Positions 7,648 to 53,750 are shown, numbered from the stretch's first letter. The stretch is DNA of 64,000 nucleotides from Desulfosudis oleivorans (GCA_020723305.1 DYJC01000016.1:2650-66649), one strand, 5' to 3'. Notes: generated from the sequence alone by a model not told the origin. Translations and numbers: made by a program.

Positions 7648-7676
7648 TTGACAAAAACGGTTTTATTTTTTATGGT
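7648..7676 (+). promoter_or_regulatory. Candidate sigma70-type promoter (TTGACA-N17-TATGGT)
   Basis: TTGACA at 7648-7653, a 17-nt spacer, then TATGGT at 7671-7676, about 20 nt upstream of the 7697 ORF in an otherwise non-coding gap. Pattern match only. Confidence 0.3.
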
Positions 7677-7696
7677 TTTTTACATTTTTTACGATT

Positions 7697-19321: not shown

Positions 19322-20458
19322 TCAGGGCTTCTTCAAACCTGAGATATTATCTTGAGGAGAGATTGCTGCTTCTTTACCACTATAAGCATTTAATTCAATA
19401 AGCCCTAATTTTTTTATTTCATTAAATAATCTTTGGGTGAAAAGATATGCACCTTCATTATTAAAATGTCCATAATCAATAATGGCGGAATCATTCAATC
19501 CACAGTCTTCTGGTCTATTCCAAACTATGGAATGCACGTTTTCGTTGTTTAAGGTAAAAATATAATCTAAATATATCAAATTAGCAGCAGTTAATTCCTG
19601 AATTCCTTCTATAACATCTATATATTTATTGCGTAATGGGGGTTGAAGAATAACAATCTTTTTAGTCTTTTTCTCGACGATATTTATAAGACGGTTAAGA
19701 TATTCAGCCTTATATTCAGCAAATTGGTAATTCCCCATTGCTTTAATTTGATTTCGAACCGAAAAAATTTGATCAGTAGCAAGTTTTATATATGCTGATT
19801 GTTTGTAATGGTATTCTGGAATATAATCAGGATTATAAGGTTCTGGACGTTTTCCAATCATAAGTGAATAAAAAATAGTACCCCATTCCTCAAGGGTGCG
19901 ACGTTGGGAGTGTGGAAAAAAGTAATCTGATAACAAAAGTAACCTCAATTTTAAATCTGGTAACGCTAATCTTTCTTGAAAAGTAGACCAGGTAAGAAAA
20001 GCAGTTTCTCCGGCACCCAAAGGATAAAAATTTTTATTGAACATCCATGGGGCAACCTCAATAATTACAAGTGGATTTGAGTTTAGCAAGTCGGGATATT
20101 TTCTGCAAAATAATAATTCCTCCCAAGTACCAGCACCATTACTTTGGAGTATAAGTATTTTTGACTGTTCAATACCTGATAGTTTAGAAAAAAGATCTCT
20201 CTTGATACAGGAGGCTATACGAGAACTCCCCAAAAAGATCACTTTTGCATTATTAGGCCTTTTAAGATCAAGGTATGAAATAACGGGGGTTACAAAAGAT
20301 TTATTATTAATCATTTCCAAGGAATCTCGGTTAATTGAAAGACCAACACAAGTGCAGGTCAAAATAATTAGTGTTAAAATAAAAACCTTTATGTGAGATG
20401 ACAATTTATTAAAAAAACTAAAAATTGAAATAAATAAATGGTTGGACATAGCTTTCAC
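19322..20458 (-). CDS. SGNH-like periplasmic partner of MBOAT O-acyltransferase (DUF1574/AlgJ/PatB-like)
   Basis: 378 aa with one N-terminal TM helix. SGNH-type block I VIFLGSSR and block V IDYGHFN. It overlaps the 3' end of the upstream MBOAT gene by 41 nt. MBOAT plus an extracytoplasmic SGNH-like partner is the AlgI/AlgJ-X, PatA/PatB arrangement. Confidence 0.55.
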   Translation of the reverse strand: MKAMSNHLFISIFSFFNKLSSHIKVFILTLIILTCTCVGLSINRDSLEMINNKSFVTPVISYLDLKRPNNAKVIFLGSSRIASCIKRDLFSKLSGIEQSKILILQSNGAGTWEELLFCRKYPDLLNSNPLVIIEVAPWMFNKNFYPLGAGETAFLTWSTFQERLALPDLKLRLLLLSDYFFPHSQRRTLEEWGTIFYSLMIGKRPEPYNPDYIPEYHYKQSAYIKLATDQIFSVRNQIKAMGNYQFAEYKAEYLNRLINIVEKKTKKIVILQPPLRNKYIDVIEGIQELTAANLIYLDYIFTLNNENVHSIVWNRPEDCGLNDSAIIDYGHFNNEGAYLFTQRLFNEIKKLGLIELNAYSGKEAAISPQDNISGLKKP

Positions 20459-21839
20459 CTATGAAGGAGATACTCAGGATGAGCAAGGCATAGACAATAC
20501 TTCTCCAGAGCCACGGGGTCTCTGACGTTACCAGCAATTCTCGGTTGAATCTGTATGGTAGTAAATCTATTGCCAAGACAACGGCCATATAAAAAAGTGT
20601 AATGAATATGAGCGAAGCTGATGAATACCCGAGGTGGGAAATATTAAATAAAAAATATGAATAGTTATATGCAGTCTCTAAATCAGGCGCTCTGAAGAAT
20701 ATCCATGCAAACGCTACGATGTGAAATGTAATGAACACTGAGAACAAGGACTTCATAGTGCCATGAACTTGCAGGGTGGTTGACCCTGGTTTTTTGAGAC
20801 TGCCCCTAAAATATCTTGATAAGGCCAAGTATGTTCCATGGATGCCCCCCCAAGCTACAAATACCCATGATGCTCCATGCCAGAGACCACAAAGGAGCAT
20901 AGTGGCGAGAAGGTTAATATATGTCCGGGCAGTGCCTTTCTTGCTGCCTCCCAAGGGGATGTAGAGATAGTCCCTTAGCCAGGTTGAAAGGGATATGTGC
21001 CACCTCTTCCAGAATTCCCTGATATTTTTTGACAGGTAAGGCTGTTTGAAATTTTCCATTATCTCTATGCGTAGAAGCTTGCTGGCCCCCCGGACTATGT
21101 CCGTGTAGCCGGAAAAGTCTGCATAGATCTGAAGTGTATACAGATAAATCCCGCATAGAAGATCTATGGACATAAACTGTTGTGGAGAAGAAAAAAGTTG
21201 ATCAACATATGGGGCAACTGCATCTGCGATCACTTTCTTTTTGAAAAAACCAAGGAGTATCAGATGCAGGCCAGCAAAAATCTGTTCTTTACCAATAATC
21301 CTCTTCCTATCAATCTGCTGTAGAAAGGTGCCAGCTCTTCCGATGGGTCCAGCAGATATTTCCGGAAAATAGCCAACGAATAAAGCAAATGATATGATAT
21401 CTGCAGGCGCTTGCTCACCTCTATAGACATCCATAAGATACCCAATGATCTTGAATGTGAAAAAACTGATTCCAAGGGGTAATATGAGGTTCAGTATCTG
21501 CATATTGGGTAAAAATCCAAAAGGCTGAAAGGCTGCAATGAATGAGTCGACGAAGAAATTGTAGTATTTGAAAAATCCCAGAATACTCAGATTATACATT
21601 AAGCTCATGATTAAAATGGTTTTTCTTGTTGTCTGATCCTTTGCTGCGTGTATTTTCAAACCAAAATAAAAGTTTAATGAAGTAGTAATAATAATAAGTG
21701 CGAGAAAACGATAGTCCCAGTAGCTGTAGAAAAGATAACTTGCAATAAGTAGGAATATGTTCTGCCACAACCCCGATAAGGAATAGTATACTGGGAGTGT
21801 TGCAAGTATAATAATTATGACCCAATAATTGAAAAGCAT
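20418..21839 (-). CDS. MBOAT-family membrane O-acyltransferase (AlgI/DltB-like)
   Basis: ORF 20418..21935; ATG at 21839 gives MLFNYWV, a typical MBOAT N-terminus. The catalytic-His region FWKRWHISLSTWLRDYLYIPLGG is the canonical AlgI/DltB motif. Confidence 0.85.
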   Translation of the reverse strand: MLFNYWVIIIILATLPVYYSLSGLWQNIFLLIASYLFYSYWDYRFLALIIITTSLNFYFGLKIHAAKDQTTRKTILIMSLMYNLSILGFFKYYNFFVDSFIAAFQPFGFLPNMQILNLILPLGISFFTFKIIGYLMDVYRGEQAPADIISFALFVGYFPEISAGPIGRAGTFLQQIDRKRIIGKEQIFAGLHLILLGFFKKKVIADAVAPYVDQLFSSPQQFMSIDLLCGIYLYTLQIYADFSGYTDIVRGASKLLRIEIMENFKQPYLSKNIREFWKRWHISLSTWLRDYLYIPLGGSKKGTARTYINLLATMLLCGLWHGASWVFVAWGGIHGTYLALSRYFRGSLKKPGSTTLQVHGTMKSLFSVFITFHIVAFAWIFFRAPDLETAYNYSYFLFNISHLGYSSASLIFITLFYMAVVLAIDLLPYRFNRELLVTSETPWLWRSIVYALLILSISFIGESYVQPFIYFNF

Positions 21840-21979
21840 TATAACTTGATCTTCAAATTTTTCATAAGGTGAATCCGATAAAACAATATCCTCTATGACA
21901 GAAAGAAAACACTCGACCTTGATTTTGGATGTCAAGCTGTTTCAGGGTGATATCATGGTTTGGCCCTTTAAGTCATGAT

Positions 21980-23125
21980 TTATCCAAAAAAATCCGTTAT
22001 TTTTTCGATAACTCTGTCTGTTTCATTATCACTCATTTCATAATACATCGGTAAGCGCAGAATCCTGTCACTTAGACACTCAGTATTTGAAAGATCGCCA
22101 TTTGTTCTGCCAAATTTAATGCCTGCAGGTGATGAGTGCAGGGGGATATAATGGAATATGGCATAAATGCCAAATCCTTTAAGGAAATCGATTAATCTGG
22201 TCCTTTCATCATTGGATCTTAGAATAATATAGAAAATGTGGCCATTACAGACATTCAATTCTTCAACGTAAGGTAAACGAATAATACCTTTATCCTCAAA
22301 TGGTTTTAAAAGTTGATAATATTTGTTAAATATTTTACATCGAACGGATATTATTTTCTCTGCCATTTCGAACTGGGCATATAAAAAAGCACCCACTAGT
22401 TCACTTGGTAGAAAAGATGAACCGATATCCACCCAGGTGTACTTGTCAACCTCACCTCTCAGGAAACGGTTGCGATTGGTTCCTTTTTCCCGGATAATCT
22501 CCGCCCGTTCGATAAATCTATCGTCATTTATTAACAGTGCGCCTCCTTCACCGCTGATGATATTTTTGGTTTCATGGAAGCTGAGGCACCCCAGGTGACC
22601 GATGGTTCCCAGGGCTTTGTCTTTGTATTTTGAAAGCAATGCCTGTGCTGCGTCTTCAATCACATATAAATGGTGTTCATCTGCAATTTCGGATATTTTG
22701 TCCATTTCACAAGGTATACCGGCATAATGCACTGGTACGATAGCTCTTGTTTGGGGCGTAACTGCCTGGACAATTTTTTTTTCATCCAGGTTGAGTGTGT
22801 CCGGTCTGATGTCTATGAATACAGGCACCGCACCGCGAAGTACAAAGGCATTGGCAGTGGATACAAAGGTGAACGAGGGCATGATGACTTCATCACCGGG
22901 CTTGATATCACACAATATGGCAGCCATCTCCAGCGCGGCGGTACATGAATTCGTGAGCAGAGCTTTCCGGCAGTTCAGTTGTTCTTCAAGCCATTGGTGA
23001 CATCGTTTTGTAAATGGCCCATCCCCAGATAAATGAGCCTCAATAACGGCCTGGGCGATATTGTAAAGTTCTTTTCCGACAATGAATGGTTTGTTGTAAG
23101 GTATGGTGTGATCCTGAGAAGACAT
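21980..23125 (-). CDS. wecE: dTDP-4-amino-4,6-dideoxyhexose (Fuc4N-type) transaminase, DegT/WecE family
   Basis: 381 aa. From memory it aligns over its full length with E. coli WecE/RffA: IPYNKPFIVGKEL, GDGPFTKRCHQWLE, PGDEVIMPSFTFVSTANAFVLRGA, VPVHYAG, SFHETKN (PLP lysine), EIIREKGTNR, DKYTWVDIGSS, HYIPLH. Confidence 0.8.
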   Translation of the reverse strand: MSSQDHTIPYNKPFIVGKELYNIAQAVIEAHLSGDGPFTKRCHQWLEEQLNCRKALLTNSCTAALEMAAILCDIKPGDEVIMPSFTFVSTANAFVLRGAVPVFIDIRPDTLNLDEKKIVQAVTPQTRAIVPVHYAGIPCEMDKISEIADEHHLYVIEDAAQALLSKYKDKALGTIGHLGCLSFHETKNIISGEGGALLINDDRFIERAEIIREKGTNRNRFLRGEVDKYTWVDIGSSFLPSELVGAFLYAQFEMAEKIISVRCKIFNKYYQLLKPFEDKGIIRLPYVEELNVCNGHIFYIILRSNDERTRLIDFLKGFGIYAIFHYIPLHSSPAGIKFGRTNGDLSNTECLSDRILRLPMYYEMSDNETDRVIEKITDFFG

Positions 23126-23161
23126 ATCTTCATCCCTTTTATATTTTTATTGCGGTTCGTC

Positions 23162-23698
23162 TCAAAAAGAAGTTGTATTATCTTTTATTTCACGCTTTTT
23201 TATTATCTTTGCAGGAATCCCGGCAACTATGACATAGGGAGGAATATTTTTTGTGACCAAAGATCCAGCGGCAATTACGCTGCCCTCGCCAACAGTCACT
23301 CCATGAATTATTGTACAACAAGCACCAATCCAGACATTGTCCTTGATAATAATGTTTCCGCCGCTATCCGGTAATGATAGTCTGGTGTAGTCATGCCCGG
23401 CACCTAATAACGTTACCTCAGGGCCGATTGCAACGTTATTGCCAATTTTGATGGTATAGTTTCCGGCTAATCTGGATCCAAAGAATTTACATCCTCTATT
23501 TATCGCAACATTATTTCCAATGGAGATTTTTGATGGGTATCTGAAATAACAAGAGTAATCAATAAGAACATCTTTACCCAGTTTTTTAAATACAGCCTTA
23601 AAAAATAAAAAACGTATAATAGGCGGGCAAAGATCGATTACACCCATAAGGATTTTTGTTATATAGGAATAATATAAAAATAGAAATTTTTTACTCAA
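23162..23698 (-). CDS. Hexapeptide-repeat (LbH) acetyltransferase, WbbJ/LacA-like
   Basis: 178 aa with left-handed beta-helix repeats (IKDNVWIGACCTIIHGVTVGEGSVIAAGSLVTKNIPPYVIVAGIPAKI) and a hydrophobic N-terminus. Confidence 0.75.
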   Translation of the reverse strand: MSKKFLFLYYSYITKILMGVIDLCPPIIRFLFFKAVFKKLGKDVLIDYSCYFRYPSKISIGNNVAINRGCKFFGSRLAGNYTIKIGNNVAIGPEVTLLGAGHDYTRLSLPDSGGNIIIKDNVWIGACCTIIHGVTVGEGSVIAAGSLVTKNIPPYVIVAGIPAKIIKKREIKDNTTSF

Positions 23699-24032
23699 AA
23701 TTTCCCCATGAATAAATAACTATACCTGTTATTATAATAAAAACCGAAAGTATTTTTCTTTTTGATATACTTTCATTCAATATTATTTTTGTAAAAAAAA
23801 AAGTAAACAAATAAGATAACGGCAATAGTGCCGTGGCAGTCAAAAGGCTTATTTTTTTTAAACAGTACACAGAAATGACCGTTGTTATAAAAAACAATAA
23901 GTACCCAACTACAAGGTATCTGTTAATTATGAAAAAATCAGGTTTATTCATTGTGCTCATTTTTAGTAGAACTTGAGCGAAGCCAGTTATTCCTGTTGCA
24001 AGAATATAAAGTAAAATGAAAAGTATCTTCAT
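23691..24032 (-). CDS. Small four-TM EamA/SMR-like protein (ArnE/ArnF-like flippase subunit candidate)
   Basis: 113 aa, about four TM helices, directly downstream of a similar 121-aa protein. The size and pairing match the ArnE/ArnF heterodimer. The call rests on architecture only. Confidence 0.5.
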   Translation of the reverse strand: MKILFILLYILATGITGFAQVLLKMSTMNKPDFFIINRYLVVGYLLFFITTVISVYCLKKISLLTATALLPLSYLFTFFFTKIILNESISKRKILSVFIIITGIVIYSWGNFE

Positions 24033-24036
24033 AATT

Positions 24037-24402
24037 TTATTTCTCGGTCAATAATGTTACCATTCCCAAAAAAATAATAAAAAGACCTGATATCATGGAC
24101 CAGGAAACCGGCTCATTGAATAAAAATTTTGCAAAAATGGTATTAAAAATAAGAGATAAACTGAGAAAAGGATAAGCAAAACTCAGGTTAAAGAATTTCA
24201 GGGAAAACAACCAGAATATTGACTGCAAAAATAAAAACGTGAGTGCTAATAAATAATAAATGTTGAGATAGGTAAAAAGAAATCCATTATTCAATGATGA
24301 AATCGCTGCATATTTACCAAATACGTAAGCAATTGACTGGCATATCACTGATAGAAGAATTAGCAAAAATTTAATATTCATATACCTACTTCGGGTATTC
24401 AA
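24037..24402 (-). CDS. Small four-TM EamA/SMR-like protein (ArnE/ArnF-like flippase subunit candidate)
   Basis: 121 aa, about four TM helices, paired with 23691..24032. Confidence 0.5.
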   Translation of the reverse strand: MNTRSRYMNIKFLLILLSVICQSIAYVFGKYAAISSLNNGFLFTYLNIYYLLALTFLFLQSIFWLFSLKFFNLSFAYPFLSLSLIFNTIFAKFLFNEPVSWSMISGLFIIFLGMVTLLTEK

Positions 24403-24467
24403 ATGGTCGCCAGTTTGTCGTTATCAAGCACGTAATGGGCGCCTATTATGTGATGATCATATACCCC

Positions 24468-25037
24468 CTAATGATTGAAATAGGTCTGCCCAGCTTTGAT
24501 AAAGCTCTTAGGTGGTATATCGTTATGCTCAATAATAATAGAGCCTGCACCGATAAAACTGTCTTCACCTATTCGGGCACCACCGCATATCGTAGCGTTT
24601 GGGGACAGAAAAATATTGTTGCCGATATTACAGTCATGGTTGACAACTACCCCTGGCCAGACCGTAACCAACTCGCCCACAACAGCATTGTAATCGATAA
24701 CAGCACCAGCCATAATTATCGTCCCCTGACCGATTTTTTTTTTATCATGAACATACGCCTTGTCATGTATAAGGGTGGGGACCTCATAACTGTTTTTCCT
24801 TACCTCCCGGTAAATAACCCAGCGCGCTGATAGGTCCCTGTATCCGACTGCAATTACAATTGCATATTCATTTGCGGGGATTTTTTTTTTTACATATTCA
24901 AATGTTCCGACGATCTCTTCGCCTTGATAAATATCATCGATATACCCTTGAAAAGGATAGCCCAGATATTCTACCAAACCCTTCATGACCTTGCCGAATT
25001 CTTTTGATCCGTAGATCAATATTTTTTTTTTATTCAT
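24468..25037 (-). CDS. NeuD/PglD-family nucleotide-aminosugar N-acetyltransferase
   Basis: 189 aa. N-terminal Rossmann-like KILIYGSKEFGKV plus C-terminal hexapeptide repeats (IGQGTIIMAGAVIDYNAVVGELVTVWPGVVVNHDCNIGNNIFLSPNATICGGARIGEDSFIGAGSIII). The gene contains three A/T homopolymers of 10-11 nt. Confidence 0.75.
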   Translation of the reverse strand: MNKKKILIYGSKEFGKVMKGLVEYLGYPFQGYIDDIYQGEEIVGTFEYVKKKIPANEYAIVIAVGYRDLSARWVIYREVRKNSYEVPTLIHDKAYVHDKKKIGQGTIIMAGAVIDYNAVVGELVTVWPGVVVNHDCNIGNNIFLSPNATICGGARIGEDSFIGAGSIIIEHNDIPPKSFIKAGQTYFNH

Positions 25038-25840
25038 ATGGATAAGATTGCGATGTACCCTGTCAGAGCCCAGAATTTATTACATTCGTTAATGACTTTG
25101 TTTATATAGTAGTCCATAATGCTTTTCCAGATGATATCTGCGGACTTTTTAATATCATAAGTTGATGGAAGCAGTGGTTCCCCAATTATGCCCTGGTTAG
25201 ATCTGTAGGTTAACGGAATTCCCAATACATTACAATCAATGGCTTTCTTAGGGGTTTCCGTGCTGAGCTCCTTCAGCCGATCCATCCGTTTTTCAGTGAA
25301 GTAAGTTTCACCCAACAGTTGATAGAGAAGAAGAAACTCCCTCCAGTCCGCATGTTTGCCGGTATTATAGTTCAATTTATCCTGGATGATGGCATTGACT
25401 TCCCCCATGGTTAAAACAATAACAGGCCGTTTTTCACTTTCGGGGGATTCGAATTGCTGGTTGACAATATTGAAGGCTACCTCATTTATTGACGGGTCAG
25501 CTGGACCGTGCCCGCTTACAATAATAACCGCATCAAATGAATTTTTAAAAAGAGAAAGGCAGATCTCTCTAATGTACCTTCTGAATGTATCCTCTTCAAC
25601 AGTCACAGAACCTTTGTAATTCATGTTTGATTTGACTGGTGAATAAAATACAGGAGGGAAAGAATAACAGAAGTATCCCCTTGAGATAAGTTCTTGTGCT
25701 ACTTTTCGGGAGATTGCTTCACTGATAATCGAATCCGACTCAACGGGCAGAACCGGACCATGCTGTTCAAGACTCCCCACCGGTAAAATCGCGAAGGCTT
25801 TTTTACCGGCTGTTTTACATCCGGCGATTGCATCTTCCAT
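25034..25840 (-). CDS. Creatininase-family amidohydrolase
   Basis: ORF 25034..25936; ATG at 25840 removes the overlap with the upstream gene. AFAILPVGSLEQHGPVLPVESD matches the creatininase-family active-site region. Its stop overlaps the next start (ATGA at 25034-25037). Confidence 0.7.
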   Translation of the reverse strand: MEDAIAGCKTAGKKAFAILPVGSLEQHGPVLPVESDSIISEAISRKVAQELISRGYFCYSFPPVFYSPVKSNMNYKGSVTVEEDTFRRYIREICLSLFKNSFDAVIIVSGHGPADPSINEVAFNIVNQQFESPESEKRPVIVLTMGEVNAIIQDKLNYNTGKHADWREFLLLYQLLGETYFTEKRMDRLKELSTETPKKAIDCNVLGIPLTYRSNQGIIGEPLLPSTYDIKKSADIIWKSIMDYYINKVINECNKFWALTGYIAILSI

Positions 25841-25878
25841 TTCTTTTGAGGATAAGAAATTGTAATACACGGCGATAC

Positions 25879-26712
25879 CTATTTTGTGGCAATGACTCTT
25901 ATATATTTGAACAAATGCCGGGTTAATGGTAGGCACTCATGCAGAAAATTCCTTGTCGCATCAGCATGCATTGAGAGACTTTCATCATGGATCATATTGC
26001 CCTCACCGATAAACCATTCGTATATGATTTGAACTTTTGAGAAACCGGCATCTTCCAGCATCTGCGTAATGTCCTCCTCTTTGAAGCCGCCTGAAATATG
26101 CTTTAAATGCTCTGATTTCAAAAGAAGATCTTTATCAATATCAAAATTATCCTCCAACTCTTGGTCTTTATGTTTAACAGCGTATATTTCCCTTTCGACA
26201 AATGCACTGTATTTCTGTTTCTCGCTGAGCAATTTGATTGAATCCCAGAAGTAAAAATTGGGGTCCAGGTCGGAATAAAAAACGCCGCCTGGTTTCATCA
26301 CTCTGTAAATTTCATTGAAAACCGGAGAGAGATCATGAAGATGGTGCAGTACGGCGTAAGCGGTCACCATGTTGAACTGATTGTTCTCAAAAGGCAGGTC
26401 TTCTGTTGTCGCAAGCTGAACCTGGATATCGCACTCCGGGTGGTTCGTGTCGATTTGCTGAATCATCTCGGGTGTTATGTCTACGCCTCGTATTTTTTTG
26501 AAGTATTTTTTTGCAATATCAATAATAAAACCTGCACCGCATCCAATGTCCAGCAGCATATCGGCACCGGATTGTCTCACAAGACCCTGGAGGACCGTTT
26601 CAATTTTGGCGATATTTTCCGGACGGTAATGCGGTTCCGTACTCTTATATACTTTTGAAAGCCTTGCATGTAACTCTATGTTGGATTCCAACACTTCTTT
26701 TTTTGATATCAT
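25879..26712 (-). CDS. Class I SAM-dependent methyltransferase
   Basis: ORF 25879..26844; ATG at 26712 (MISKKEVL) avoids overlap with the radical SAM gene. SAM motif LLDIGCGAGFIIDIA and later AVLHHLHD. Confidence 0.7.
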   Translation of the reverse strand: MISKKEVLESNIELHARLSKVYKSTEPHYRPENIAKIETVLQGLVRQSGADMLLDIGCGAGFIIDIAKKYFKKIRGVDITPEMIQQIDTNHPECDIQVQLATTEDLPFENNQFNMVTAYAVLHHLHDLSPVFNEIYRVMKPGGVFYSDLDPNFYFWDSIKLLSEKQKYSAFVEREIYAVKHKDQELEDNFDIDKDLLLKSEHLKHISGGFKEEDITQMLEDAGFSKVQIIYEWFIGEGNMIHDESLSMHADATRNFLHECLPLTRHLFKYIRVIATK

Positions 26713-26719
26713 CTTTTCA

Positions 26720-27652
26720 TTACCTAGGTGGTTTTTTATTTTCGGGATAAATAAAAATCGATCTGCCAGCCTGCCAGTCTTTGCATTCTGAGCAGAGATC
26801 ATGGGTGAAATCAAGATTCCAGTGTTTTTCCCTTCTTTGGGCAAGCTCTCCCTGCCACAACTCCTTTATGGTTGATGAATGCAGGTTGCCGGGGCTGAAT
26901 TTGCCGTCATAATCCGCATCGCATTGTGCGAATTTTCCGTTCCAATGGATCGAAACGGTTCTTGCAAGCCATGAACAGGGAAAGTCCCTTTCAGAATCCG
27001 GAAGGTTAAGGTTATCCGCTTTCACCCCGGTTCCCCAACCCAGTTTCGGTCTGATTTTGACTACCTGTCCTTTTCCTAACCAGTGGCTTTTGAACGCCTC
27101 CAGCTCTTCTTCATTTTCACCCATGACAATATACTGGAGAATCAAGGTGGGGAGGTCTGATTTTTTCTTTGTTTTAGCTTCAATGATATAGTCAATATTT
27201 TTATTGAGTTGATCAAAATCACCACCAACCCTGATTTTTACGTATGTCTCCTTTGAAAAGGCATCAATCCCGAAGATAATGTAATCCAACCCGGCATCAA
27301 TAAGCCGGTCGGAAAGATCCGGTGTCAGAAGCAGGCCGTTTGTATTCAGGTTTACACTCTTGATGCCGTTGTCTTTTGCATATTTAACCATTTTCACCAG
27401 TTTTTCACCCAGGAACAACGGCTCTCCCATGATTGCAAGCCAGATTCGGGTTGCGGGGTTTTCTCTGGCAACCTCATCGGCGATTTTTTGAAAGAGTTCA
27501 AGGCTCATCTCCCCCTTTTCACGGGTTAAGCTTTTTTGAGGGCACATAATGCATTTCAAGTTACAAAACGCCGTTACTTCAACGATAACATCTACCGGAA
27601 ACGGATATCGCTGCAGCGTTTTTCTGACGTTGTCTAAATCGGGTATTAACAT
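26720..27652 (-). CDS. Radical SAM protein with C-terminal Cys-rich (SPASM/twitch-like) region
   Basis: 310 aa with cluster motif FCNLKCIMCPQ (CxxxCxxC), GEPLF, and C-terminal cysteines (FPCSW...AQCDADYDG...LCSECKDW). Confidence 0.75.
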   Translation of the reverse strand: MLIPDLDNVRKTLQRYPFPVDVIVEVTAFCNLKCIMCPQKSLTREKGEMSLELFQKIADEVARENPATRIWLAIMGEPLFLGEKLVKMVKYAKDNGIKSVNLNTNGLLLTPDLSDRLIDAGLDYIIFGIDAFSKETYVKIRVGGDFDQLNKNIDYIIEAKTKKKSDLPTLILQYIVMGENEEELEAFKSHWLGKGQVVKIRPKLGWGTGVKADNLNLPDSERDFPCSWLARTVSIHWNGKFAQCDADYDGKFSPGNLHSSTIKELWQGELAQRREKHWNLDFTHDLCSECKDWQAGRSIFIYPENKKPPR

Positions 27653-27667
27653 CGGCTTATTCTCCTA

Positions 27668-28615
27668 TTACGTATCATGTTGTGTGTCATGATTTTCATG
27701 AAGGTAAGTATCTTTGACGATAACATATGGCCTGTTTTTACTTTCAACAAATATCCTGGACAGGTACATTCCGATTATTCCCAAAAACGAAAACGTCATG
27801 CCGGCAATCAACCAGATCGATACGATCAATGAGGTCCAGCCGGTGATCGGGCTTGTCAGGAAAAGTTTTTTGAATATCAACAGAATAAGCCATGTGAAAG
27901 ACACTCCTGAAACAATGATTCCCGTAAAGAAAATGATTTGCAAGGGTTTGTTGCTGAAAGAGGTTATTGCGTTTACGGACAGTTGTATCTTTTTTTTCAG
28001 GGTATAGGAAGATTGACTTTTTGATATTCTTTTAATTGTAAGGGGTATCTGGTTGAATCCGGTGAGATGCCAAAGCCCCGGCAGGTATATCTCCGATTCT
28101 TTAAACAGCGTGAGGCTTTGGACGTAGTTTCGGTTCATTAGCCGGGTCACCGCCGTATATTCGGCAATTTTTTTATCCGAGAAGAATGACAACAATTTAT
28201 AGAAAAGAGAGCCGGAAATTTTTTCAAACAACCCTCCTTTTCTGTTCTCAACTACGCCGAAAACCACATCGATTTCTTTATTTTCAAAGTATTTGTCCCA
28301 GAACTGCTTGAGATTTTCCGGTTCTTCCTCCAGGTCTGAATCAATCAGAAAAACATATTCTCCGGTGCTGTATGACAAACCGGTCATCAGGGCCTTGTGG
28401 TGGCCGAAATTTCTGGACAGATTGATAACTTTCACTTTTTTGTCTTTATGGAATAAACGGACAGCTTTTCGGATTGAGTCATCCGGGGAGCCGTCGTTGA
28501 CAAAAACTATCTCATAGTCATCCGTAATTGTCTTTGCAGACGCGGTCATTCGTCTATAAAATTCCTGAATCGTTTCGGAAGAATTATATAAGGTTGTAAC
28601 AATCGATAGTTTCAT
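27668..28615 (-). CDS. GT2 polyprenyl-phosphate glycosyltransferase (GtrB/ArnC/CsbB-like)
   Basis: 315 aa with MKLSIVTTLYNSSETI, VFVNDGSPDDS and LIDSDLEE (DxD), plus two C-terminal TM helices (IIFFTGIIVSGVSFTWLILLIF, LIVSIWLIAGMTFSFLGIIGMYL). This is the architecture of lipid-carrier-charging GT2 enzymes. Confidence 0.75.
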   Translation of the reverse strand: MKLSIVTTLYNSSETIQEFYRRMTASAKTITDDYEIVFVNDGSPDDSIRKAVRLFHKDKKVKVINLSRNFGHHKALMTGLSYSTGEYVFLIDSDLEEEPENLKQFWDKYFENKEIDVVFGVVENRKGGLFEKISGSLFYKLLSFFSDKKIAEYTAVTRLMNRNYVQSLTLFKESEIYLPGLWHLTGFNQIPLTIKRISKSQSSYTLKKKIQLSVNAITSFSNKPLQIIFFTGIIVSGVSFTWLILLIFKKLFLTSPITGWTSLIVSIWLIAGMTFSFLGIIGMYLSRIFVESKNRPYVIVKDTYLHENHDTQHDT

Positions 28616-28625
28616 TTGCCGGTTC

Positions 28626-29309
28626 TCAGTTCATCATGAATTTTTTGGCAGACATCCCTTCATTGAAAATCATATCGACGATGCTGACAAAATGGTCAAA
28701 AGGAGGGAAGGGTTGAAAATATTCAGGGTAGTTTGAGTAGTCCATCCAGTGAATTTCAATATTGTTTTGAACAAACAGTTCCTCCTTAATGTAGTTTTTA
28801 GCAGTTGGGCCGGATATGTACACGTTCCCGCGGGCCTGTTTGCAGAGTTCTATGAGAGCTTCTGTTTTTCCCGGAATCAGATTGTATTCAGTTGACCAGG
28901 TCAGTGTCGTTTCTATCCCGAGAAGCTTGTTGATTGCAGTAATAAATCTGTAATTAATGTCAGAAAGATACATTTCTTTGGCTGTCAGGTAAAGATTTTC
29001 AAAATAAGCTTTATATTCTTGGAAGTATTTTGTTTTTGCATAGGATTGCGAGATCGTTTTCCAGTGTTTTATATTCCACCGTGTATCCGATATTTTTGTA
29101 TCCCTAATCTGCTGGTTGATTGATTTAACCGAGACCGGTATTGTCAGCCACTTGATACCGCCCTGTGTTTTGATCCTGTTTCTGTTTCTCCAGTCATGCT
29201 TTGTATATTGAACGTGATCATAAATGATGAATTCATCAGCAAGGTTCAGGATGTCGAAATAGCCTTTCCAGGGAATATAGTTCGATTGTAATATGGCTAC
29301 TTTTTTCAT
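28626..29309 (-). CDS. WbqC-family protein
   Basis: ORF 28626..29366; ATG 29309 gives MKKVAILQSNYIPWKGYFDIL, the conserved WbqC-family N-terminus found in O-antigen/aminosugar clusters. Confidence 0.7.
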   Translation of the reverse strand: MKKVAILQSNYIPWKGYFDILNLADEFIIYDHVQYTKHDWRNRNRIKTQGGIKWLTIPVSVKSINQQIRDTKISDTRWNIKHWKTISQSYAKTKYFQEYKAYFENLYLTAKEMYLSDINYRFITAINKLLGIETTLTWSTEYNLIPGKTEALIELCKQARGNVYISGPTAKNYIKEELFVQNNIEIHWMDYSNYPEYFQPFPPFDHFVSIVDMIFNEGMSAKKFMMN

Positions 29310-29598
29310 TAATAAATAATCGCTGTATAGAAACATTAACATCTTTAAACCACATGCAAAAATCATCTGCTTTGATTCCTGACAAGGTGCTTTATGCTTA
29401 CATTTTTATATTGCTATTGTCAAATATGATTACGAAACCTAAGTAACAGCCTTGACCGCATACAAGGCGGTATCATTTTCCTATCAATACCTTGATCCTA
29501 AATGTTTTTCATGGTATTCGCTGGTTGTCGGTTTCATCAGGTATTCTTTAAAAACGGTTTGGGGATGCGGATTTGAATTTAAAATAAATGAAATTCAC

Positions 29599-31803
29599 AT
29601 GAAGATAGGTAAAAAAATATATCCTTTTCTCGTTCTACTGCTACTTATTATCCTTTTTTTTGGAGAAAGACTGATACCGTTCAATAACCGTTTTATCGGA
29701 GGGATCGATGTTTCCCTTTTTTTTTTCTGGGAAAGAGGGTTTGTAAAAGAAGAGATCCTTTCCGGCAGCGCTCCTCTCTGGAATCCGTATACCGGCGGGG
29801 GAGTTCCGTTTTTCCCTAGTCAACTGTTCTATCCGCTCACTTTTATATATGTCGTTTTGCCGCTGCCTTGGGCCTTCAACGCAGATATTCTTATCCACCT
29901 GTATATTGCCGCTATCGGCATGTATTGCTTGGTATCATTACTGTCCGGATCTAAAAGTGCCGGAATTGTCACAGGTGTGGTCTATTGTCTCAGTGGCTAC
30001 ATGTTAGACCGGATCATGGCGGGACATATTGTGTATCTTTATTCAGCAGCTTACCTGCCATGGATTTTCTTTTTTATCGAAAGAGCGCACAAGACCAAAC
30101 AGATGCGTTTCTTGATATTTTCCAGTATCATTCTGGGAATACAAAGTTTGGCGGCAGATGCCCAAAATGGTCTTTACATGGCTTTATGCCTGAGTATATA
30201 CTATTTCATTCGTTTTTTTCCGGATAAAAGCAAGTTCAATGTCAGTTCTTTTCTCAAATACGTAGGGTATTACTTCCTGTTTCCGATGATTTCATTCGGT
30301 CTCTCCGCAGTTCAGCTTCTTCCTTATCGTGAATTCATCCAGCATTGCACCCGTGACAAGATTACATATGACATCGCTACTTTTTTTTCGTACCCACCGG
30401 ATAATTTTTTCACCTTCCTAGTCCCCAAAATGGAGAGTTCCATAATCAATACCAATTGGGAATTCAGTGGCTACATCGGTATTTTTTCGCTGGTACTGAT
30501 CGGGCTCGGTATGCTGCTTCCGCAACACCGCAAGAACAAACTGATTATTGTGGCGATTTTGCTGATCCTGTCCACAATTTTGCTGGGACATTTTACTCCG
30601 TTCTATCATTTATATTATAAATACATGCCGTTAATGGATAATATGCGGGTTCCGGCCCGTTGCATTCTTCTATTCGTTTTTTTCTTGGTTATACTGGCAG
30701 GTTTCGGGGCGCAATATCTGACTGAATCAAATCTTCACCGGAGACATCATGTCTATTCCTTTTTATTGATCGCAGTATTATCCGTGTGTCTGCTGTATGG
30801 CGCAAAACAATACGGAGTTCCCTATTTTTCAAAGGAGGTACTGCATGTTTTTGGATTTTTAATGGGAGCTTTGCTGGTGCTAAATATAAAACCATATATC
30901 CGCAATAATCATATAATTTGCAGTCTTGTGGTTATCGCGGTGTTTATGGATTACCTGATTATATATAAAAAAGACATTCCTGAAATCGATGGGGACAAAC
31001 TTTCAGAGATATGCCCCTATGAGAATTTCATTAAAAACAGGGAAGGGTTGTTCCGGGTTCTTTTGCCGGGAAACGGCTTCAATGATGCTCGCGCATTCAG
31101 GTTCCGTTATTACAACGCAAACGGCTATAATGTGGCCTTTTTAAAAGATTATTACAGGTTTATGCATGAGATGGCCGGAATCCCGCAAAATATATTTGCG
31201 AAACATTATCTCAGCGATAAAATTTTTAAACAGGATTTGGTTTTCAGTTCAAGGATTTTAAACATCAAATACGCCATGGTATTGAATGAGCAAAATGGTT
31301 CCGCCGCTCTGGTTTCATTAAAAGACGTCATGCCGAGGGCGTTTTTAGTCAAAGATGCTATCTATCTTTCCGATAAAGAAGATCATCTTGAATATTTAAA
31401 GAATCCGGATTTCGATCCGAGCAGGCAAGCCCTCCTTTTGGCTTCGGAAAAAGAAGCCTGGCCGATGCCGGACCCTGAAAACACCGAGAAGATAGGTGAT
31501 TATGATGACCTGACAATAACAGACTACAAACCAAACAGAATAGAATTGGCATCTACCAGTCGGGAAAATGCCTTTATGGTATTGAGTGAAAATCATTATC
31601 CCGGCTGGCATGCTTATGTAGATGGGGAGAAAGTCAATATTCTCCGGGCGGATTATCTATTGAGAGCCATTCATCTTCCGGCAGGCACCCATCGAATAGA
31701 GTTCGTTTATATGCCAAAAAGCCTGATCACCGGCGCAGCCATCACTCTTTTCACTATTATCATTCTGGGAAGCATAATAACCTATATATACAAAAGGCAT
31801 TGA
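29599..31803 (+). CDS. YfhO-family polytopic membrane protein (GT-C-like glycosyltransferase)
   Basis: ORF 29452..31803; ATG 29599 (MKIGKKIYPFLVLLLLI). Many TM segments, LWNPYTGGGVPF near the N-terminus, a large C-terminal soluble domain and a final TM helix. This is the YfhO architecture. Confidence 0.7.
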   Translation: MKIGKKIYPFLVLLLLIILFFGERLIPFNNRFIGGIDVSLFFFWERGFVKEEILSGSAPLWNPYTGGGVPFFPSQLFYPLTFIYVVLPLPWAFNADILIHLYIAAIGMYCLVSLLSGSKSAGIVTGVVYCLSGYMLDRIMAGHIVYLYSAAYLPWIFFFIERAHKTKQMRFLIFSSIILGIQSLAADAQNGLYMALCLSIYYFIRFFPDKSKFNVSSFLKYVGYYFLFPMISFGLSAVQLLPYREFIQHCTRDKITYDIATFFSYPPDNFFTFLVPKMESSIINTNWEFSGYIGIFSLVLIGLGMLLPQHRKNKLIIVAILLILSTILLGHFTPFYHLYYKYMPLMDNMRVPARCILLFVFFLVILAGFGAQYLTESNLHRRHHVYSFLLIAVLSVCLLYGAKQYGVPYFSKEVLHVFGFLMGALLVLNIKPYIRNNHIICSLVVIAVFMDYLIIYKKDIPEIDGDKLSEICPYENFIKNREGLFRVLLPGNGFNDARAFRFRYYNANGYNVAFLKDYYRFMHEMAGIPQNIFAKHYLSDKIFKQDLVFSSRILNIKYAMVLNEQNGSAALVSLKDVMPRAFLVKDAIYLSDKEDHLEYLKNPDFDPSRQALLLASEKEAWPMPDPENTEKIGDYDDLTITDYKPNRIELASTSRENAFMVLSENHYPGWHAYVDGEKVNILRADYLLRAIHLPAGTHRIEFVYMPKSLITGAAITLFTIIILGSIITYIYKRH

Positions 31804-31820: not shown

Positions 31821-32135
31821 TTGATTAATTCTTTGTATCCTGAAGTGCTCATCATACTATGCGCCATTATCAGTGGTGCCGAAGCATGGACCCACGTCGC
31901 CGAATACGGTCGATCAAAAGAAGAATGGTTCAGTCTGCACTGGTGTCTGGATGTGTCCTTTCGTGAAGATCTTTGCCGGGTACGAAAAGACCATGCCCCG
32001 GAAAATTTTGGAATCCTGCGCCACATGGCAATGAATTTACTCAAACAGGAAAAATTCTTCAAAGGCGGCATCAAGGCTAAACGACTTAAAGCCTCATGGG
32101 ATCACAAATACTTGCTGAAACTACTTGCTGGATAA
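31821..32135 (+). pseudogene. Internally deleted ISAs1/IS4-type transposase remnant
   Basis: The 104-aa ORF joins an N-terminal DDE_Tnp_1-associated segment (VLIILCAIISGAEAWTHVAEYGRSKEEWF) directly to the extreme C-terminus (HWCLDVSFREDLCRVRKDHAPENFGILRHMAMNLLKQE...KRLKASWDHKYLLKLL). The catalytic core is missing. Confidence 0.7.
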
Positions 32136-32449: not shown

Positions 32450-33439
32450 ATGACAATCGACGTAAAACAGATCAGTGAAAAAGTGCAGATGGAAAGTCCG
32501 GTGATTCGCCGGATACGGGAGGAGATTCACAAGGTGATTGTCGGTCAGGAAAAGCTGATTGATGGTTTGTTGATTGCGCTTTTCTGCAACAATCATGTTT
32601 TGATCGAAGGGGTTCCGGGGCTTGCCAAAACGCTTTCGGTTACCACTCTTGCGGGAATGATTCAGGCGACCTTCCAGCGGATCCAGTTCACGCCGGATCT
32701 TCTGCCTGCGGATGTGATCGGAACGCTGATTTATAATCCCAAAACCGGTGATTTTTTGACCAAAAAAGGCCCCATCTTTGCCAATATTGTTCTGGCGGAT
32801 GAAATCAACCGTGCGCCGGCAAAGGTTCAGAGCGCTTTGCTTGAGGCCATGCAGGAACGTCAGGTTACGATCGGGGATACCAGCTATGGTCTGGATGATC
32901 CGTTTCTGGTGATGGCAACGCAGAATCCCATAGATCAGGAGGGGACATATCCGCTTCCGGAAGCGCAGGTTGACCGCTTTATGTTCAAACTCAAGGTTTC
33001 TTATCCTACAAAGGCACAGGAACATCTGATTCTGAAAAAAATGGCACGATCTATTCCGCAGACAGATGTGGAACCGGTCATGTCGCCGGAAGATATACGG
33101 AGGCTCCGGGCGCTTTCCGATGAAATTTATATGGATGAAAAAATTGAGGAATATATTGTCAATCTTGTGGAAGCCTCCCGGAATCCGGACGCATACGGGC
33201 TGGATATCGGTCAGTTGATACGATATGGCGCCTCTCCGCGGGCAACCATATTTCTTGCCATGGCATCCAGGGCAAATGCCTTGCTGGAGGGCCGTGGGTA
33301 TGTCACGCCGCAGGATGTAAAAACAGTGGCCATGAATGTGCTGCGGCACAGGATTGTGGTGACCTATGAAGCGGAAGCGGAAGAAAAAACATCGGAAGAT
33401 GTGGTTGAACAGATCCTTCAGAGTGTGGATGTGCCATGA
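32450..33439 (+). CDS. MoxR-family AAA+ ATPase
   Basis: 329 aa with AGGAG upstream. VIVGQEKLIDGLLIALFCNNHVLIEGVPGLAKT (Walker A) and VLADEINRAPAKVQSALLEAMQE (Walker B region). Its stop overlaps the next start. Confidence 0.9.
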   Translation: MTIDVKQISEKVQMESPVIRRIREEIHKVIVGQEKLIDGLLIALFCNNHVLIEGVPGLAKTLSVTTLAGMIQATFQRIQFTPDLLPADVIGTLIYNPKTGDFLTKKGPIFANIVLADEINRAPAKVQSALLEAMQERQVTIGDTSYGLDDPFLVMATQNPIDQEGTYPLPEAQVDRFMFKLKVSYPTKAQEHLILKKMARSIPQTDVEPVMSPEDIRRLRALSDEIYMDEKIEEYIVNLVEASRNPDAYGLDIGQLIRYGASPRATIFLAMASRANALLEGRGYVTPQDVKTVAMNVLRHRIVVTYEAEAEEKTSEDVVEQILQSVDVP

Positions 33440-34323
33440 TACCGGAAGAGCTGGTTAAAAAAATCCGGTACATCCAGATTTATACCAGTAAGGCTGTCAA
33501 CGACTCCCTTGCCGGTGAATATGAAAGCGTTTTCAAGGGCAGGGGCATGGAGTTTGATGAGGTGCGGGAGTATAAAATCGGGGATGAAATCCGTTCCATT
33601 GACTGGAATGTCACGGCCCGGATGGGTGAACCATATGTAAAACGGTTTGTGGAAGAAAGAGAGCTGACCGTTTTATTTCTTGTGGATCTATCCGCATCCG
33701 GGGATTTTGGAAGCAGAAAACAGTTAAAGAATGAGGTCGCTGCCGAACTTTGTGCGCTTCTTTCATTTTCAGCCATCAAGAATAACGACAAGGTCGGGTT
33801 GATTGTTTTTACAGACCAGATCGAAATGTTTATTCCTCCAGCCAAAGGGACCAGCCATGTGTTGAGACTCATCCGTGAATTACTTCAGTTTAAACCCAAG
33901 CAGAAAAAAACAGATATTGCTTCAGCCCTTGCTTATCTGGATCGGATTACCCATAAAAAGTGCGTTGTATTTCTGGTCTCTGATTTTATCGCAAATGATT
34001 TTCAAAAAAAACTGCGGATTATTGGACGGCGTCATGACCTCATTGCGGTTTCGATTACCGATCCTCATGAGATCCGGTTGCCGGATGTGGGGTTGATCGA
34101 ACTTGAGGATTCGGAAACCGGAGAGATGTTTCTGGTTGATACGGGCAGTGCAATGGTTCGAAAACAGTATGAAAAATATGGACAGGAGAGACAGCGGAAT
34201 CTGAAAAAGCTTTTTCAGTCCATGGGAATTGATCAGGTTGAAATTTTTACAGATGGCAATTTTGTCTTTGATCTTGTAAGGTTTTTTCGGACAAGGGAAA
34301 GACGAAGGAATGTTAGGGTATGA
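33436..34323 (+). CDS. DUF58 (vWA-like) protein, MoxR partner
   Basis: 295 aa. YESVFKGRGMEFDEVREYKIGDEIRSIDWNVTAR ... FLVDLSASGDFGS is typical of DUF58. Confidence 0.85.
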   Translation: MIPEELVKKIRYIQIYTSKAVNDSLAGEYESVFKGRGMEFDEVREYKIGDEIRSIDWNVTARMGEPYVKRFVEERELTVLFLVDLSASGDFGSRKQLKNEVAAELCALLSFSAIKNNDKVGLIVFTDQIEMFIPPAKGTSHVLRLIRELLQFKPKQKKTDIASALAYLDRITHKKCVVFLVSDFIANDFQKKLRIIGRRHDLIAVSITDPHEIRLPDVGLIELEDSETGEMFLVDTGSAMVRKQYEKYGQERQRNLKKLFQSMGIDQVEIFTDGNFVFDLVRFFRTRERRRNVRV

Positions 34324-34337
34324 TGTTATACCCCCTG

Positions 34338-34407
34338 TTACACCCCCCTGGCCCCCCTCGAGGGGGGAATTGCCTCAAGGGGGGAATGCCATAAAAAGGG
34401 GGGATTT
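34338..34407 (+). repeat. C6/G6 palindromic repeat locus R1
   Basis: Core CACCCCCCTGGCCCCCCTCGAGGGGGGAAT at 34341-34370, followed by degenerate half-units (CTCAAGGGGGGAAT, AAAAGGGGGGATT). Confidence 0.85.
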
Positions 34408-34421
34408 ATGAGGAGTGTGTG

Positions 34422-35930: not shown

Positions 35931-35984
35931 GTTATCGGTTTTCGGTTGACGGTTTTCGGTTAGCCGGTTTGCCGGTTGATGTCT

Positions 35985-36125
35985 TGTGCTAATTTCAAAA
36001 GTCTGTTTTTGTCATTCCGGCGAAGGCCGGAATCCAGTGAAGTGAAGTGCTATCCAGTATTTTCAATTCTTTTCTGGACACCGGCCTTCGCCGGTGTGAC
36101 GTTTTTTAATTTTTGAAATTGGCTC
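35985..36125 (+). repeat. MITE-like repeat, copy A
   Basis: TGTGCTAATTTCAAAAG ... GTCATTCCGGCGAAGGCCGGAATCC ... GGACACCGGCCTTCGCCGGTGTGAC ... TTTTGAAATTGGCTC. Confidence 0.85.
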
Positions 36126-36154
36126 GTCTTATTTGATATTGAACTGTAAAAAAA

Positions 36155-37174: not shown

Positions 37175-37180
37175 CTGACC

Positions 37181-39255: not shown

Positions 39256-39286
39256 TATTCCCCCCTATATAATTGTGTCACATATA

Positions 39287-39343
39287 TTCCCCCCTTGAGG
39301 GGGGCGAAGGGGGGTGTCCTTGAGGGGGAATTAAAGGGGGATG
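39287..39343 (-). repeat. C6/G6 palindromic repeat locus R2 (inverted core plus half-units)
   Basis: ATTCCCCCCTTGAGGGGGGCGAAGGGGGGTG is the reverse complement of the R1 core with a few changes. It is followed by CCTTGAGGGGGAATTAAAGGGGGATG. Confidence 0.8.
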
Positions 39344-39390
39344 TAAATACTATGGTTTTTTCCAAAAAGTTACTATCGTGAATGGCTCAA

Positions 39391-39420
39391 CACCCCCCTG
39401 GCCCCCCTCCAGGGGGGAAT
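39391..39420 (+). repeat. C6/G6 palindromic repeat R3
   Basis: CACCCCCCTGGCCCCCCTCCAGGGGGGAAT, 53 nt upstream of the DUF559 start. Confidence 0.85.
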
Positions 39421-39472
39421 AAAAAATAAAAAATTCCAAATACGATTACCCAGGGAACCGGAGGAGCAGCCC

Positions 39473-39937: not shown

Positions 39938-39970
39938 CTCAAGGGGGTATAAGCAGCCGGAAAGACTTTT

Positions 39971-53745: not shown

Positions 53746-53750
53746 TAACT

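Follow-up and report, generated by a model that had tools for sequence, protein, structure and literature searches.

What do the closely packed minus-strand genes at positions 29309 to 19322 of a stretch of Desulfosudis oleivorans DNA build, and on which side of the membrane is the product used? The stretch (GCA_020723305.1 DYJC01000016.1:2650-66649; 64,000 nucleotides, analysed as a whole and called the window below) carries this operon next to a divergent gene of the YfhO family. The initial annotation had proposed that the operon loads a sugar onto a polyprenyl phosphate and flips it, and that a glycosyltransferase of the GT-C type transfers it outside the cytoplasm. Protein families, gene architecture and conserved linkage support that proposal. 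With a probability of roughly 0.6, the operon and a periplasm-facing GT-C form a three-component extracytoplasmic glycosylation system whose donor would be a lipid-linked, N-acylated 4-amino-4,6-dideoxyhexose. Gene calls were based on a listing of open reading frames (ORFs), on Pfam and NCBIfam scans and on PDB searches, complemented by AlphaFold (AF2) models of the YfhO and WbqC proteins. All 13 gene families previously named were recovered in these searches, with the strands and coordinates given in Table 1.

The component that would charge the lipid is a family 2 glycosyltransferase (GT2). It could be aligned over its full length with the structure of GtrB sll0501 (5EKP; 166 bits, residues 2-304) and with ArnC (9HWJ; 130 bits, residues 2-302; three ArnC structures at 122-130 bits), and two C-terminal transmembrane (TM) segments were predicted around residues 227 and 263, so that the designation as a GtrB/ArnC/CsbB-type enzyme with a C-terminal TM hairpin stands. 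Because the scores are far under the equivalog cut-offs (174 versus 500 bits for PgfS, 139 versus 529 bits for ArnC), the protein is not regarded as an orthologue of PgfS, ArnC or another named enzyme. Judged by its architecture it is a polyprenyl-phosphate GT2, which would be predicted to use undecaprenyl phosphate as acceptor. The candidate flippase is formed by two small membrane proteins, sTM1 and sTM2, which are paralogues (29% identity across the length). Their described size of about 115 residues proved right (121 and 113), whereas the four TM segments attributed to both were found by a crude hydrophobicity scan in sTM2 only, sTM1 showing three. The pair fits an ArnE/ArnF-style heterodimer, to which the similarity appears real though sub-threshold. 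Small four-TM homologues occur near the core genes (defined below) in 17 other loci, and as a pair in loci L128 and L162.

The nature of the sugar is indicated by the WecE-like 4-aminotransferase. The protein exceeded both equivalog cut-offs, which leaves galacto or gluco stereochemistry at C-4. Two left-handed beta-helix (LbH) acyltransferases accompany it, one of the NeuD/PglD/VioB type and one of the LacA/WcaF type. The first gene of the operon codes for a WbqC-family protein, a family with 7595 homologues; its start at 29309 is sound, as it yields the family consensus MKKVAIL. WbqC probably ligates an acyl or aminoacyl group to the 4-amine of the sugar. Such an amide-forming role is suggested by three observations: in L004 an ATP-grasp gene takes the place of WbqC, in L020 a class II aminoacyl-tRNA synthetase-like gene lies between GT2 and PglD, and a published study describes WbqC as sharing operons with a ProRS paralogue (ProRSx), the cognate tRNA, GT4 and LmbE (PMC10404621). 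The L020 gene (positions 7898-9046 in a metagenome-assembled genome (MAG) of Scalinduaceae) encodes a 382-aa protein with a class II synthetase-like core (tRNA-synt_2b, 25.8 bits). Upstream of WbqC the same locus has a gene for an MprF-type, flippase-like LPG_synthase_TM protein (4645-5634). A literature search for "WbqC" found no functional study.

Related loci were collected in two scans. In the first, species-representative genomes were anchored on the radical S-adenosylmethionine (SAM) gene and the retrieved loci were searched with the window proteins; in the second, metagenomes were anchored on WbqC and the 35 loci that reached 6 kb or more were counted. The overall comparison set comprised about 100 related loci. 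The first scan recovered the series WbqC-GT2-radical SAM-methyltransferase-creatininase-PglD-(x)-WecE, whole or in subsets, from MAGs assigned to Desulfobulbus, Nitrospiraceae, Leptospirales, Proteobacteria, Bacteroidia, Desulfobacteraceae, Saccharibacteria, Gemmatimonadales, Thermodesulfobacteriota, Verrucomicrobiota, Scalinduaceae, Krumholzibacteriota, Phycisphaerae and Fibrobacteres. The core was present in about 15 genomes of more than 12 phyla. Among the 35 WbqC-anchored loci, a GtrB-like GT2 was found in 30 (adjoining WbqC in most of the 35), a WecE-like aminotransferase in about 29, a PglD-like LbH protein in 19 and the radical SAM gene in a single one. On these counts the core consists of WbqC, GT2 and WecE, with the LbH and small TM proteins as optional members. 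A minimal core was also found in the complete genome of Sulfurimonas sp. HSL-1716 (CP147918.1; identities of 55% for GT2, 64% for WbqC and 56% for the aminotransferase), which has in addition a 516-aa polytopic protein. The arrangement is no chance cluster, as dozens of loci from other phyla bring these families together again.

The most informative comparison for the outer-face components is L128, a metagenome locus situated between housekeeping genes. It encodes a YfhO protein, WbqC (54%), GT2 (49%), an LbH protein, a GH130-like protein, WecE (58%), a small-TM pair (sTMa 31% identical to sTM1, sTMb 28% to sTM2) and a sulfotransferase, and on the opposite strand an SGNH-like protein (63 bits with the family HMM) and an MBOAT protein (43%). 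The gene order differs from that of the window, and the radical SAM, methyltransferase and creatininase genes are absent. Because L128 thus independently repeats the window combination without these three genes, it supports a functional link of YfhO and of the MBOAT/SGNH pair to the core. An early tblastn/phmmer result, according to which no YfhO, MBOAT or SGNH gene lay near other cassettes, was overturned once all three turned up in L128 in the Pfam and HMM searches. The GH130-like and sulfotransferase genes (12500-13396 and 15257-16129) occur there instead of the three missing genes; L128 hints at a different tailoring of the same sugar scaffold.

The YfhO protein scored 83.4 bits with PF09586, against a gathering score of 28.5 bits, and its divergent transcription is as previously described. 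Its AF2 model had a mean predicted local distance difference test (pLDDT) of 91.1 and a predicted template modelling score (pTM) of 0.91. When the model was compared with the PDB by Foldseek, the best 27 matches were all GT-C proteins (AftD, PglB, ArnT, STT3, Emb, DPY19, AftA, PMT). In the first outer loop, D37 was invariant among 41 homologues. As modelled, the protein has the GT-C fold, and its first extracytoplasmic loop carries an acidic residue. The remark in the initial annotation that a YfhO protein would be unusual in a diderm was overstated: homologues are common in MAGs labelled Proteobacteria, Planctomycetes, Chloroflexota and Actinobacteria, and YfhO in diderms is better described as uncharacterised than as rare.

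Polytopic proteins stand beside the core in 20 of the 27 long loci. GT-Cs recognised by Pfam at core loci are YfhO in L128 (212 bits), PMT_2 proteins in L162, L089 and L010, and a DUF2142/PMT protein in L117; an unclassified family with 11 TM segments lies directly beside the cassette in L008, L087 and L010. The homologue in L090, 39% identical to the YfhO protein of the window, adjoins another GtrB-like GT2 with DegT and ATP-grasp genes, which we count in favour of a three-component system with YfhO.

The features of the window are collected in Table 1.

Table 1. Features of the operon, the divergent YfhO gene, a further candidate transferase and the boundaries (positions in the window)
Feature	Position	Strand	Evidence and remarks
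WbqC-family protein, 227 aa	28626..29309	-	PF08889, 247 bits
GT2, GtrB/ArnC/PgfS type, C-terminal TM hairpin	27668..28615	-	PF00535; PgfS 174 bits (best NCBIfam match), ArnC 139 bits
BtrN-like radical SAM protein, one 4-Cys auxiliary-cluster domain (SPASM)	26720..27652	-	PF04055 + PF13186
Class I SAM methyltransferase, 277 aa	25879..26712	-	PF08241, 87 bits
Creatininase-fold amidohydrolase, 268 aa	25034..25840	-	PF02633, 98 bits
NeuD/PglD/VioB-type LbH N-acyltransferase	24468..25037	-	TIGR03570 144 bits (cut-off 160.8, not reached); PglD_N + Hexapep
Small membrane protein 1 (sTM1), ArnE-like, 121 aa, candidate flippase subunit	24037..24402	-	ArnE 35 bits, E=1e-8; EamA 26.8 bits
Small 4-TM protein 2 (sTM2), ArnF-like, 113 aa, candidate flippase subunit	23691..24032	-	ArnF 23.5 bits; EamA 27.6 bits
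LacA/WcaF-type LbH O-acetyltransferase, 161-178 aa	23162..23698	-	Hexapep; NF007076 97 bits, WcaF 87 bits, both sub-cut-off
WecE-type dTDP-4-keto-6-deoxyhexose 4-aminotransferase	21980..23125	-	NF008687 607.5 bits (cut-off 375); TIGR02379 588 bits (cut-off 435)
MBOAT membrane O-acyltransferase	20418..21935 (probable start ~21839)	-	PF03062 87 bits; DltB 184 bits, sub-cut-off
Membrane-anchored DltD-like SGNH protein, 378 aa	19322..20458	-	family profile vs DltD 6PFX, E=6e-5
YfhO-family GT-C, 734 aa, candidate periplasmic transferase	29599..31803 (probable start 29599; longest ORF from 29452)	+	PF09586
Divergent intergenic region WbqC-YfhO, presumed promoter region	29310..29598 (289 bp)	.	read from sequence
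TMTC-like GT-C + TPR protein, alternative periplasmic transferase	12935..15379	-	32-35% identical to paralogues at 188-2653 and 4165-6777
IS66-family remnant (TnpB_IS66 fused to truncated DDE_Tnp_IS66), left boundary	18072..18957	-	
ISAs1-family transposase fragment, right boundary	31821..32135	+	NF033564, 70.7 bits

Several observations weigh against a system composed in this way. Just 2 of the roughly 100 loci have YfhO beside the core, other GT-C families being found elsewhere, and the closest YfhO homologues (L090 and L091; 39-41% identity) share genes with the left flank of the window, not with the WbqC cassette: they neighbour a methyltransferase-GT2 fusion, AT3 genes and TMTC-like genes for GT-Cs with TPR repeats, with counterparts at 2662-4098, 6842-7621, 188-2653, 4165-6777, 12935-15379 and 15414-16727. 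By a crude count, polytopic proteins near the cassette were not enriched (0.48 per 10 kb, compared with 0.55 at control radical SAM loci); owing to this negative test, only the identified GT-C cases are taken as evidence. The matches of the small TM proteins are sub-threshold (ArnE 35 bits and ArnF 23.5-29.6 bits, where the cut-offs lie at 92-99; EamA 27-28 against 28.2 bits), and the AF2 model of WbqC (pLDDT 88.6) had no significant neighbour in the PDB, the best weak matches being nucleotide-binding folds of the HUP type. Insertion sequence (IS) remnants on both sides mean that the adjacency of the genes in the block could be recent. Finally, the dTDP-glucose synthase and dehydratase genes rmlA and rmlB, already noted as missing from the operon, were not found anywhere in the 64-kb window.

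The choice of the transferase is where the strongest alternative arises. The donor module could be the same, with the sugar transferred by one or more of the TMTC-like proteins to a protein acceptor (O-glycosylation of surface proteins or pilins), and YfhO serving another donor such as the product of the methyltransferase-GT2 fusion (2662-4098). The three TMTC-like paralogues of the window (about 815-870 aa; a set also listed with the region 10881-12884) have an N-terminal polytopic domain, in which TM1 is followed by an FDD/DDD motif, and extended TPR arrays at the C-terminus; they are similar to the eukaryotic TMTC O-mannosyltransferases, and the two at 188-2653 and 4165-6777 matched PMT_2 with 27 bits. 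L010 has two TMTC-like GT-Cs, 33-40% identical to those of the window, in one same-strand run with the cassette, which speaks against an exclusive role of YfhO; the protein at 12935-15379 is 34% identical to these operon partners. A distant TMTC-like gene lies upstream of GT2 in L088, the cassette of L087 follows a type IV pilin gene, and it is TMTC-like genes, with the methyltransferase-GT2 fusion and AT3, that accompany the closest YfhO homologues, rather than WbqC. In the window, the gene at 12935-15379 is on the strand of the operon, separated from it by nothing but AT3, a TPR gene and the IS66 remnant. On the other hand, YfhO is the immediate divergent neighbour of the operon, and L128, whose 18.5 kb contain no TMTC-like gene, ties it to the core directly. 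We regard transfer by TMTC-like proteins as possible but rather unlikely.

The left-flank homology of L090 and L091 and the run of TMTC-like genes and cassette in L010 identify the region as a glycosylation island that spans about 32 kb and encodes at least four GT-Cs as well as three candidate lipid-donor GT2s. The window also encodes two fusion proteins: a 478-aa methyltransferase-GT2 protein (2662-4098), 58% identical to the product of a gene adjoining YfhO homologues in L091, and a 503-aa protein (34419-35930) in which a sugar-1-phosphate nucleotidyltransferase is joined to a GT2 with AglJ/Dpm1-like matches. Both may supply additional lipid-linked donors within this island.

In L087, positions 5570-7897 show a type IV pilin gene (N_methyl) with PilS/PilR/PilC upstream, followed directly by the 11-TM protein and then by a DegT-GT2-radical SAM cassette. 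The 11-TM protein, of the family recurring in L008 and L010, has no Pfam match and measures 593 aa as called or 599 aa from the longest ORF. This arrangement suggests pilin glycosylation. For this reason the MSHA-like type IV pilus/type II secretion system (T2SS) cluster of the window (44422-57002; two T2SSE ATPases with MshEN, a PilM-like protein, a secretin, AAA_22 and T2SSF) is of interest.

Three operon genes, those for the radical SAM protein, the methyltransferase and the creatininase-fold protein, form an accessory cassette (the triad). When the radical SAM family profile was compared with the PDB, BtrN (4M7T) was the best match by far (E=1.6e-16), in two stretches and with the four C-terminal cysteines aligned. 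The family has seven invariant cysteines, C30/C34/C37 (CX3CX2C) and C226/C244/C287/C290. BtrN is a radical SAM dehydrogenase with a twitch domain, which oxidises an aminocyclitol alcohol to the ketone used by a DegT-type aminotransferase. By analogy, the window protein probably oxidises a sugar alcohol as a sugar dehydrogenase. The methyltransferase gene always follows it in the triad. The creatininase-fold protein gave weak NCBIfam matches to MftE, creatininase, IolN and the deformylase ArfB, and may be an amide hydrolase or deacylase. That all three tailor the sugar of this locus is suggested by their linkage. In L004 the triad occurs without GT2, beside ATP-grasp, DegT and RmlA/B-like genes, in a nonulosonic-acid (NeuB) cluster with an MptE-like gene. 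A radical SAM homologue in Agarivorans was uninformative, standing alone beside IS elements and nif genes. A literature search combining creatininase, radical SAM, glycosyltransferase, aminotransferase and acetyltransferase found no paper.

A second alternative builds on the creatininase gene, which usually lies beside or near an N-acyltransferase of varying superfamily (LbH in the window, L004, L007, L010, L013, L026 and L088; formyltransferase in L005/L006; GNAT in L087). This pairing is compatible with an acylate-then-deacylate logic like that of the ArnA formyltransferase and ArnD. N-acylation would then be transient and serve GT2, the creatininase-fold enzyme would deacylate the lipid-linked sugar in the role of ArnD, and a free cationic amino sugar would be flipped and placed on lipid A or another anionic polymer. 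The resemblance of GT2 to ArnC agrees with such a charge modification, as do the formamide hydrolase ArfB and the amide hydrolase MftE among the creatininase family. However, most core loci have PglD without a creatininase gene, no ArnT (GT83) is present, the creatininase-fold enzyme has no sequence relation to ArnD, and the radical SAM protein and methyltransferase would be left without a role. We consider this account unlikely.

An ordinary cytoplasmic O-antigen or capsule locus, with GT2 as a conventional Leloir enzyme and the small TM proteins as unrelated transporters, is very improbable. WecE, PglD, LbH acetyltransferases and GT2 are standard in O-antigen loci, and WbqC itself first came to attention in an O-antigen cluster of E. 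coli, as stated in the family description that PMC5532660 quotes. Against this, the match of GT2 to GtrB and ArnC extends across the C-terminal TM hairpin, and the operon contains a single glycosyltransferase and, in Pfam and NCBIfam scans, neither Wzx, Wzy, Wzz nor an initiating phosphoglycosyltransferase. A mycofactocin-like pathway to a small molecule or ribosomally synthesised, post-translationally modified peptide, to which the combination of radical SAM-SPASM protein, creatininase-type peptidase, GT2 and methyltransferase and weak NCBIfam matches (MftC 48, MftE 51, MftF 29 bits) might point, was rejected as effectively refuted by gene context: the triad is always found among amino-sugar genes, all these scores are far under their cut-offs (265 bits for MftC and 172 bits for MftE), the scans found no MftA, MftB or MftD homologue, there is no room for a precursor peptide gene, and the radical SAM protein is structurally closest to BtrN, with a single auxiliary cluster.

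The last two genes of the operon would extend the system on the outer face. The 378-aa protein downstream of the MBOAT gene itself had no direct family match in Pfam or NCBIfam. In its family, however, which is small and distinct (about 170 representatives in 1.8 billion proteins), G77, S79, D328 and H331 are invariant and fit the GxS...DxxH signature of SGNH proteins, and members match DUF1574 (21/50), DltD (15/50) and also SGNH and ALGX. Together with the profile match to DltD, the invariant residues justify its labelling as an SGNH partner.

Tight packing of the operon was borne out, with gaps otherwise of 4-90 bp, but the mention of several overlapping genes was slightly generous: no more than two or three junctions show a true overlap (creatininase/PglD, 4 bp; MBOAT/SGNH, about 30-40 bp; possibly sTM2/LbH). 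A consensus scan of 12.5-32.4 kb for promoters and terminators gave 76 promoter-like sites (63.8±7.9 in shuffled sequences) and 26 terminator-like sites (16.2±4.7), both barely above the controls, and none of the sites was usable. The IS66 remnant and the ISAs1 fragment bracket the block of operon and YfhO gene, and an independent assembly of this block (Logan contig) stops exactly at both. The G+C content is 0.38-0.42 within the block and leftward, and 0.45-0.50 rightward. The host is a diderm of the Desulfobacteraceae type: the window encodes a secretin, which points to an outer membrane, and a MoxR protein of the window falls in one 90%-identity cluster with proteins from Desulfobacterium and Desulfobacteraceae MAGs. 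Rfam and tRNA scans of the window gave no matches. To the right lies a Bat-type operon (32450-42789; MoxR AAA, DUF58, BatA/BatB VWA, TPR, BatD), in which the nucleotidyltransferase-GT2 fusion gene is inserted after DUF58. On the left, a 503-aa secreted protein (9343-10854) without a Pfam match is built from about 12 beta-propeller-like repeats in which the motif F/YSPDS..AY recurs; its neighbour is a PD40-repeat protein (7697-9274).

For the lipid-linked three-component system with YfhO, the following course may be envisaged. dTDP-4-keto-6-deoxyglucose, made by RmlA and RmlB encoded elsewhere, would be transaminated by the WecE-type enzyme, whose family is clear. The 4-amine would be acylated by the PglD/VioB-type LbH enzyme, and WbqC probably ligates an acyl or aminoacyl group. 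The triad would tailor the sugar or its acyl group, the BtrN-like protein probably converting an alcohol to a ketone. The GtrB/ArnC-type GT2, whose assignment rests on homology, would load the sugar onto undecaprenyl phosphate, and the ArnE/ArnF-like pair would flip it. The YfhO-type GT-C, assigned by fold and paired with the core by one independent locus, would then transfer it to an envelope acceptor, either a glycan or a protein, and the MBOAT protein and its DltD-like SGNH partner would O-acylate the product on the outer face.

A broader interpretation is more tentative. The core of WbqC, GtrB-like GT2 and WecE could represent a large, phylum-spanning Arn-like family that exports N-(amino)acylated 4-amino-4,6-dideoxyhexoses to GT-Cs of varying families. 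In that case WbqC would represent a new, possibly aminoacyl-dependent type of amide-forming enzyme, and in a subset the triad would perform radical chemistry on an envelope sugar. We know of no description of radical chemistry on a sugar of a surface glycan.

Among known systems, the locus shares several features with Arn of E. coli and Salmonella, which modifies lipid A with 4-amino-4-deoxyarabinose (Ara4N): a DegT-family 4-aminotransferase, N-acylation before lipid loading, an ArnC-type GT2, an ArnE/F-like pair and a final GT-C. In contrast to the pentose of Arn, the sugar made via a WecE-type enzyme would be a 6-deoxyhexose; the GT-C belongs to the YfhO family, not to ArnT/GT83; ArnA and ArnD homologues are absent, the creatininase-fold enzyme being no more than a candidate analogue; and WbqC, the BtrN-like protein, the methyltransferase and the MBOAT/SGNH pair are additions. 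A hairpin GT2, a small flippase and a YfhO-family GT-C are also combined in the CsbB/GtrB-GtcA-YfhO/GtlB teichoic acid systems of Bacillus and Listeria (PMC5836110, PMC7389260, PMC8035078) and in Streptococcus Pgf (PgfS, PgfM1/M2). These Firmicute systems use Glc, Gal or GlcNAc instead of an amino-dideoxyhexose and GtcA instead of an EamA/ArnEF-like pair, and in the diderm host of the window the acceptor cannot be teichoic acid. Modular lipid-donor synthase, flippase and GT-C sets occur in diderms in the pentofuranose side-chain systems of Gram-negative O-antigens (Kelly et al. 2024, PMC11127046; GT136), which a MATE gene upstream of WbqC in L005/L006 also recalls; there the donor is a pentofuranose derived from phosphoribosyl pyrophosphate and the GT-C family differs. 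With BtrN/BtrS of butirosin (2-deoxystreptamine) biosynthesis the locus has in common a radical SAM protein with a single 4-Cys auxiliary-cluster domain linked to a DegT-family aminotransferase, although the match is only 63 bits with the family profile and the context is one of envelope glycan and not aminoglycoside genes. The order of an MBOAT protein and a membrane-anchored GxS...DxxH protein with a profile matching DltD is that of DltB/DltD, PatA/PatB and AlgI/AlgJ/AlgX, but DltA and DltC are absent from the locus and the partner comes from a small, distinct family. The locus departs from the known systems in its route to the donor sugar, in carrying WbqC and the BtrN-like triad, in having a GT-C of the YfhO type although the host is a diderm, and in the MBOAT/DltD-like pair added at the end.

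Three-component systems drive antigenic variation, phage resistance and resistance to antimicrobial peptides. To our knowledge, the donors characterised so far are few (glucose, GlcNAc, galactose, Ara4N and pentofuranoses), and we know of no function in glycan biosynthesis for WbqC, BtrN-like radical SAM proteins or creatininase-fold enzymes. The comparison provides WbqC with its first consistent set of genomic partners. The three-component logic is already known; the gene set that builds the donor is widespread and unstudied, and, together with some 100 related loci, the locus suggests that donors based on 4-amino-4,6-dideoxyhexose form another widespread class.

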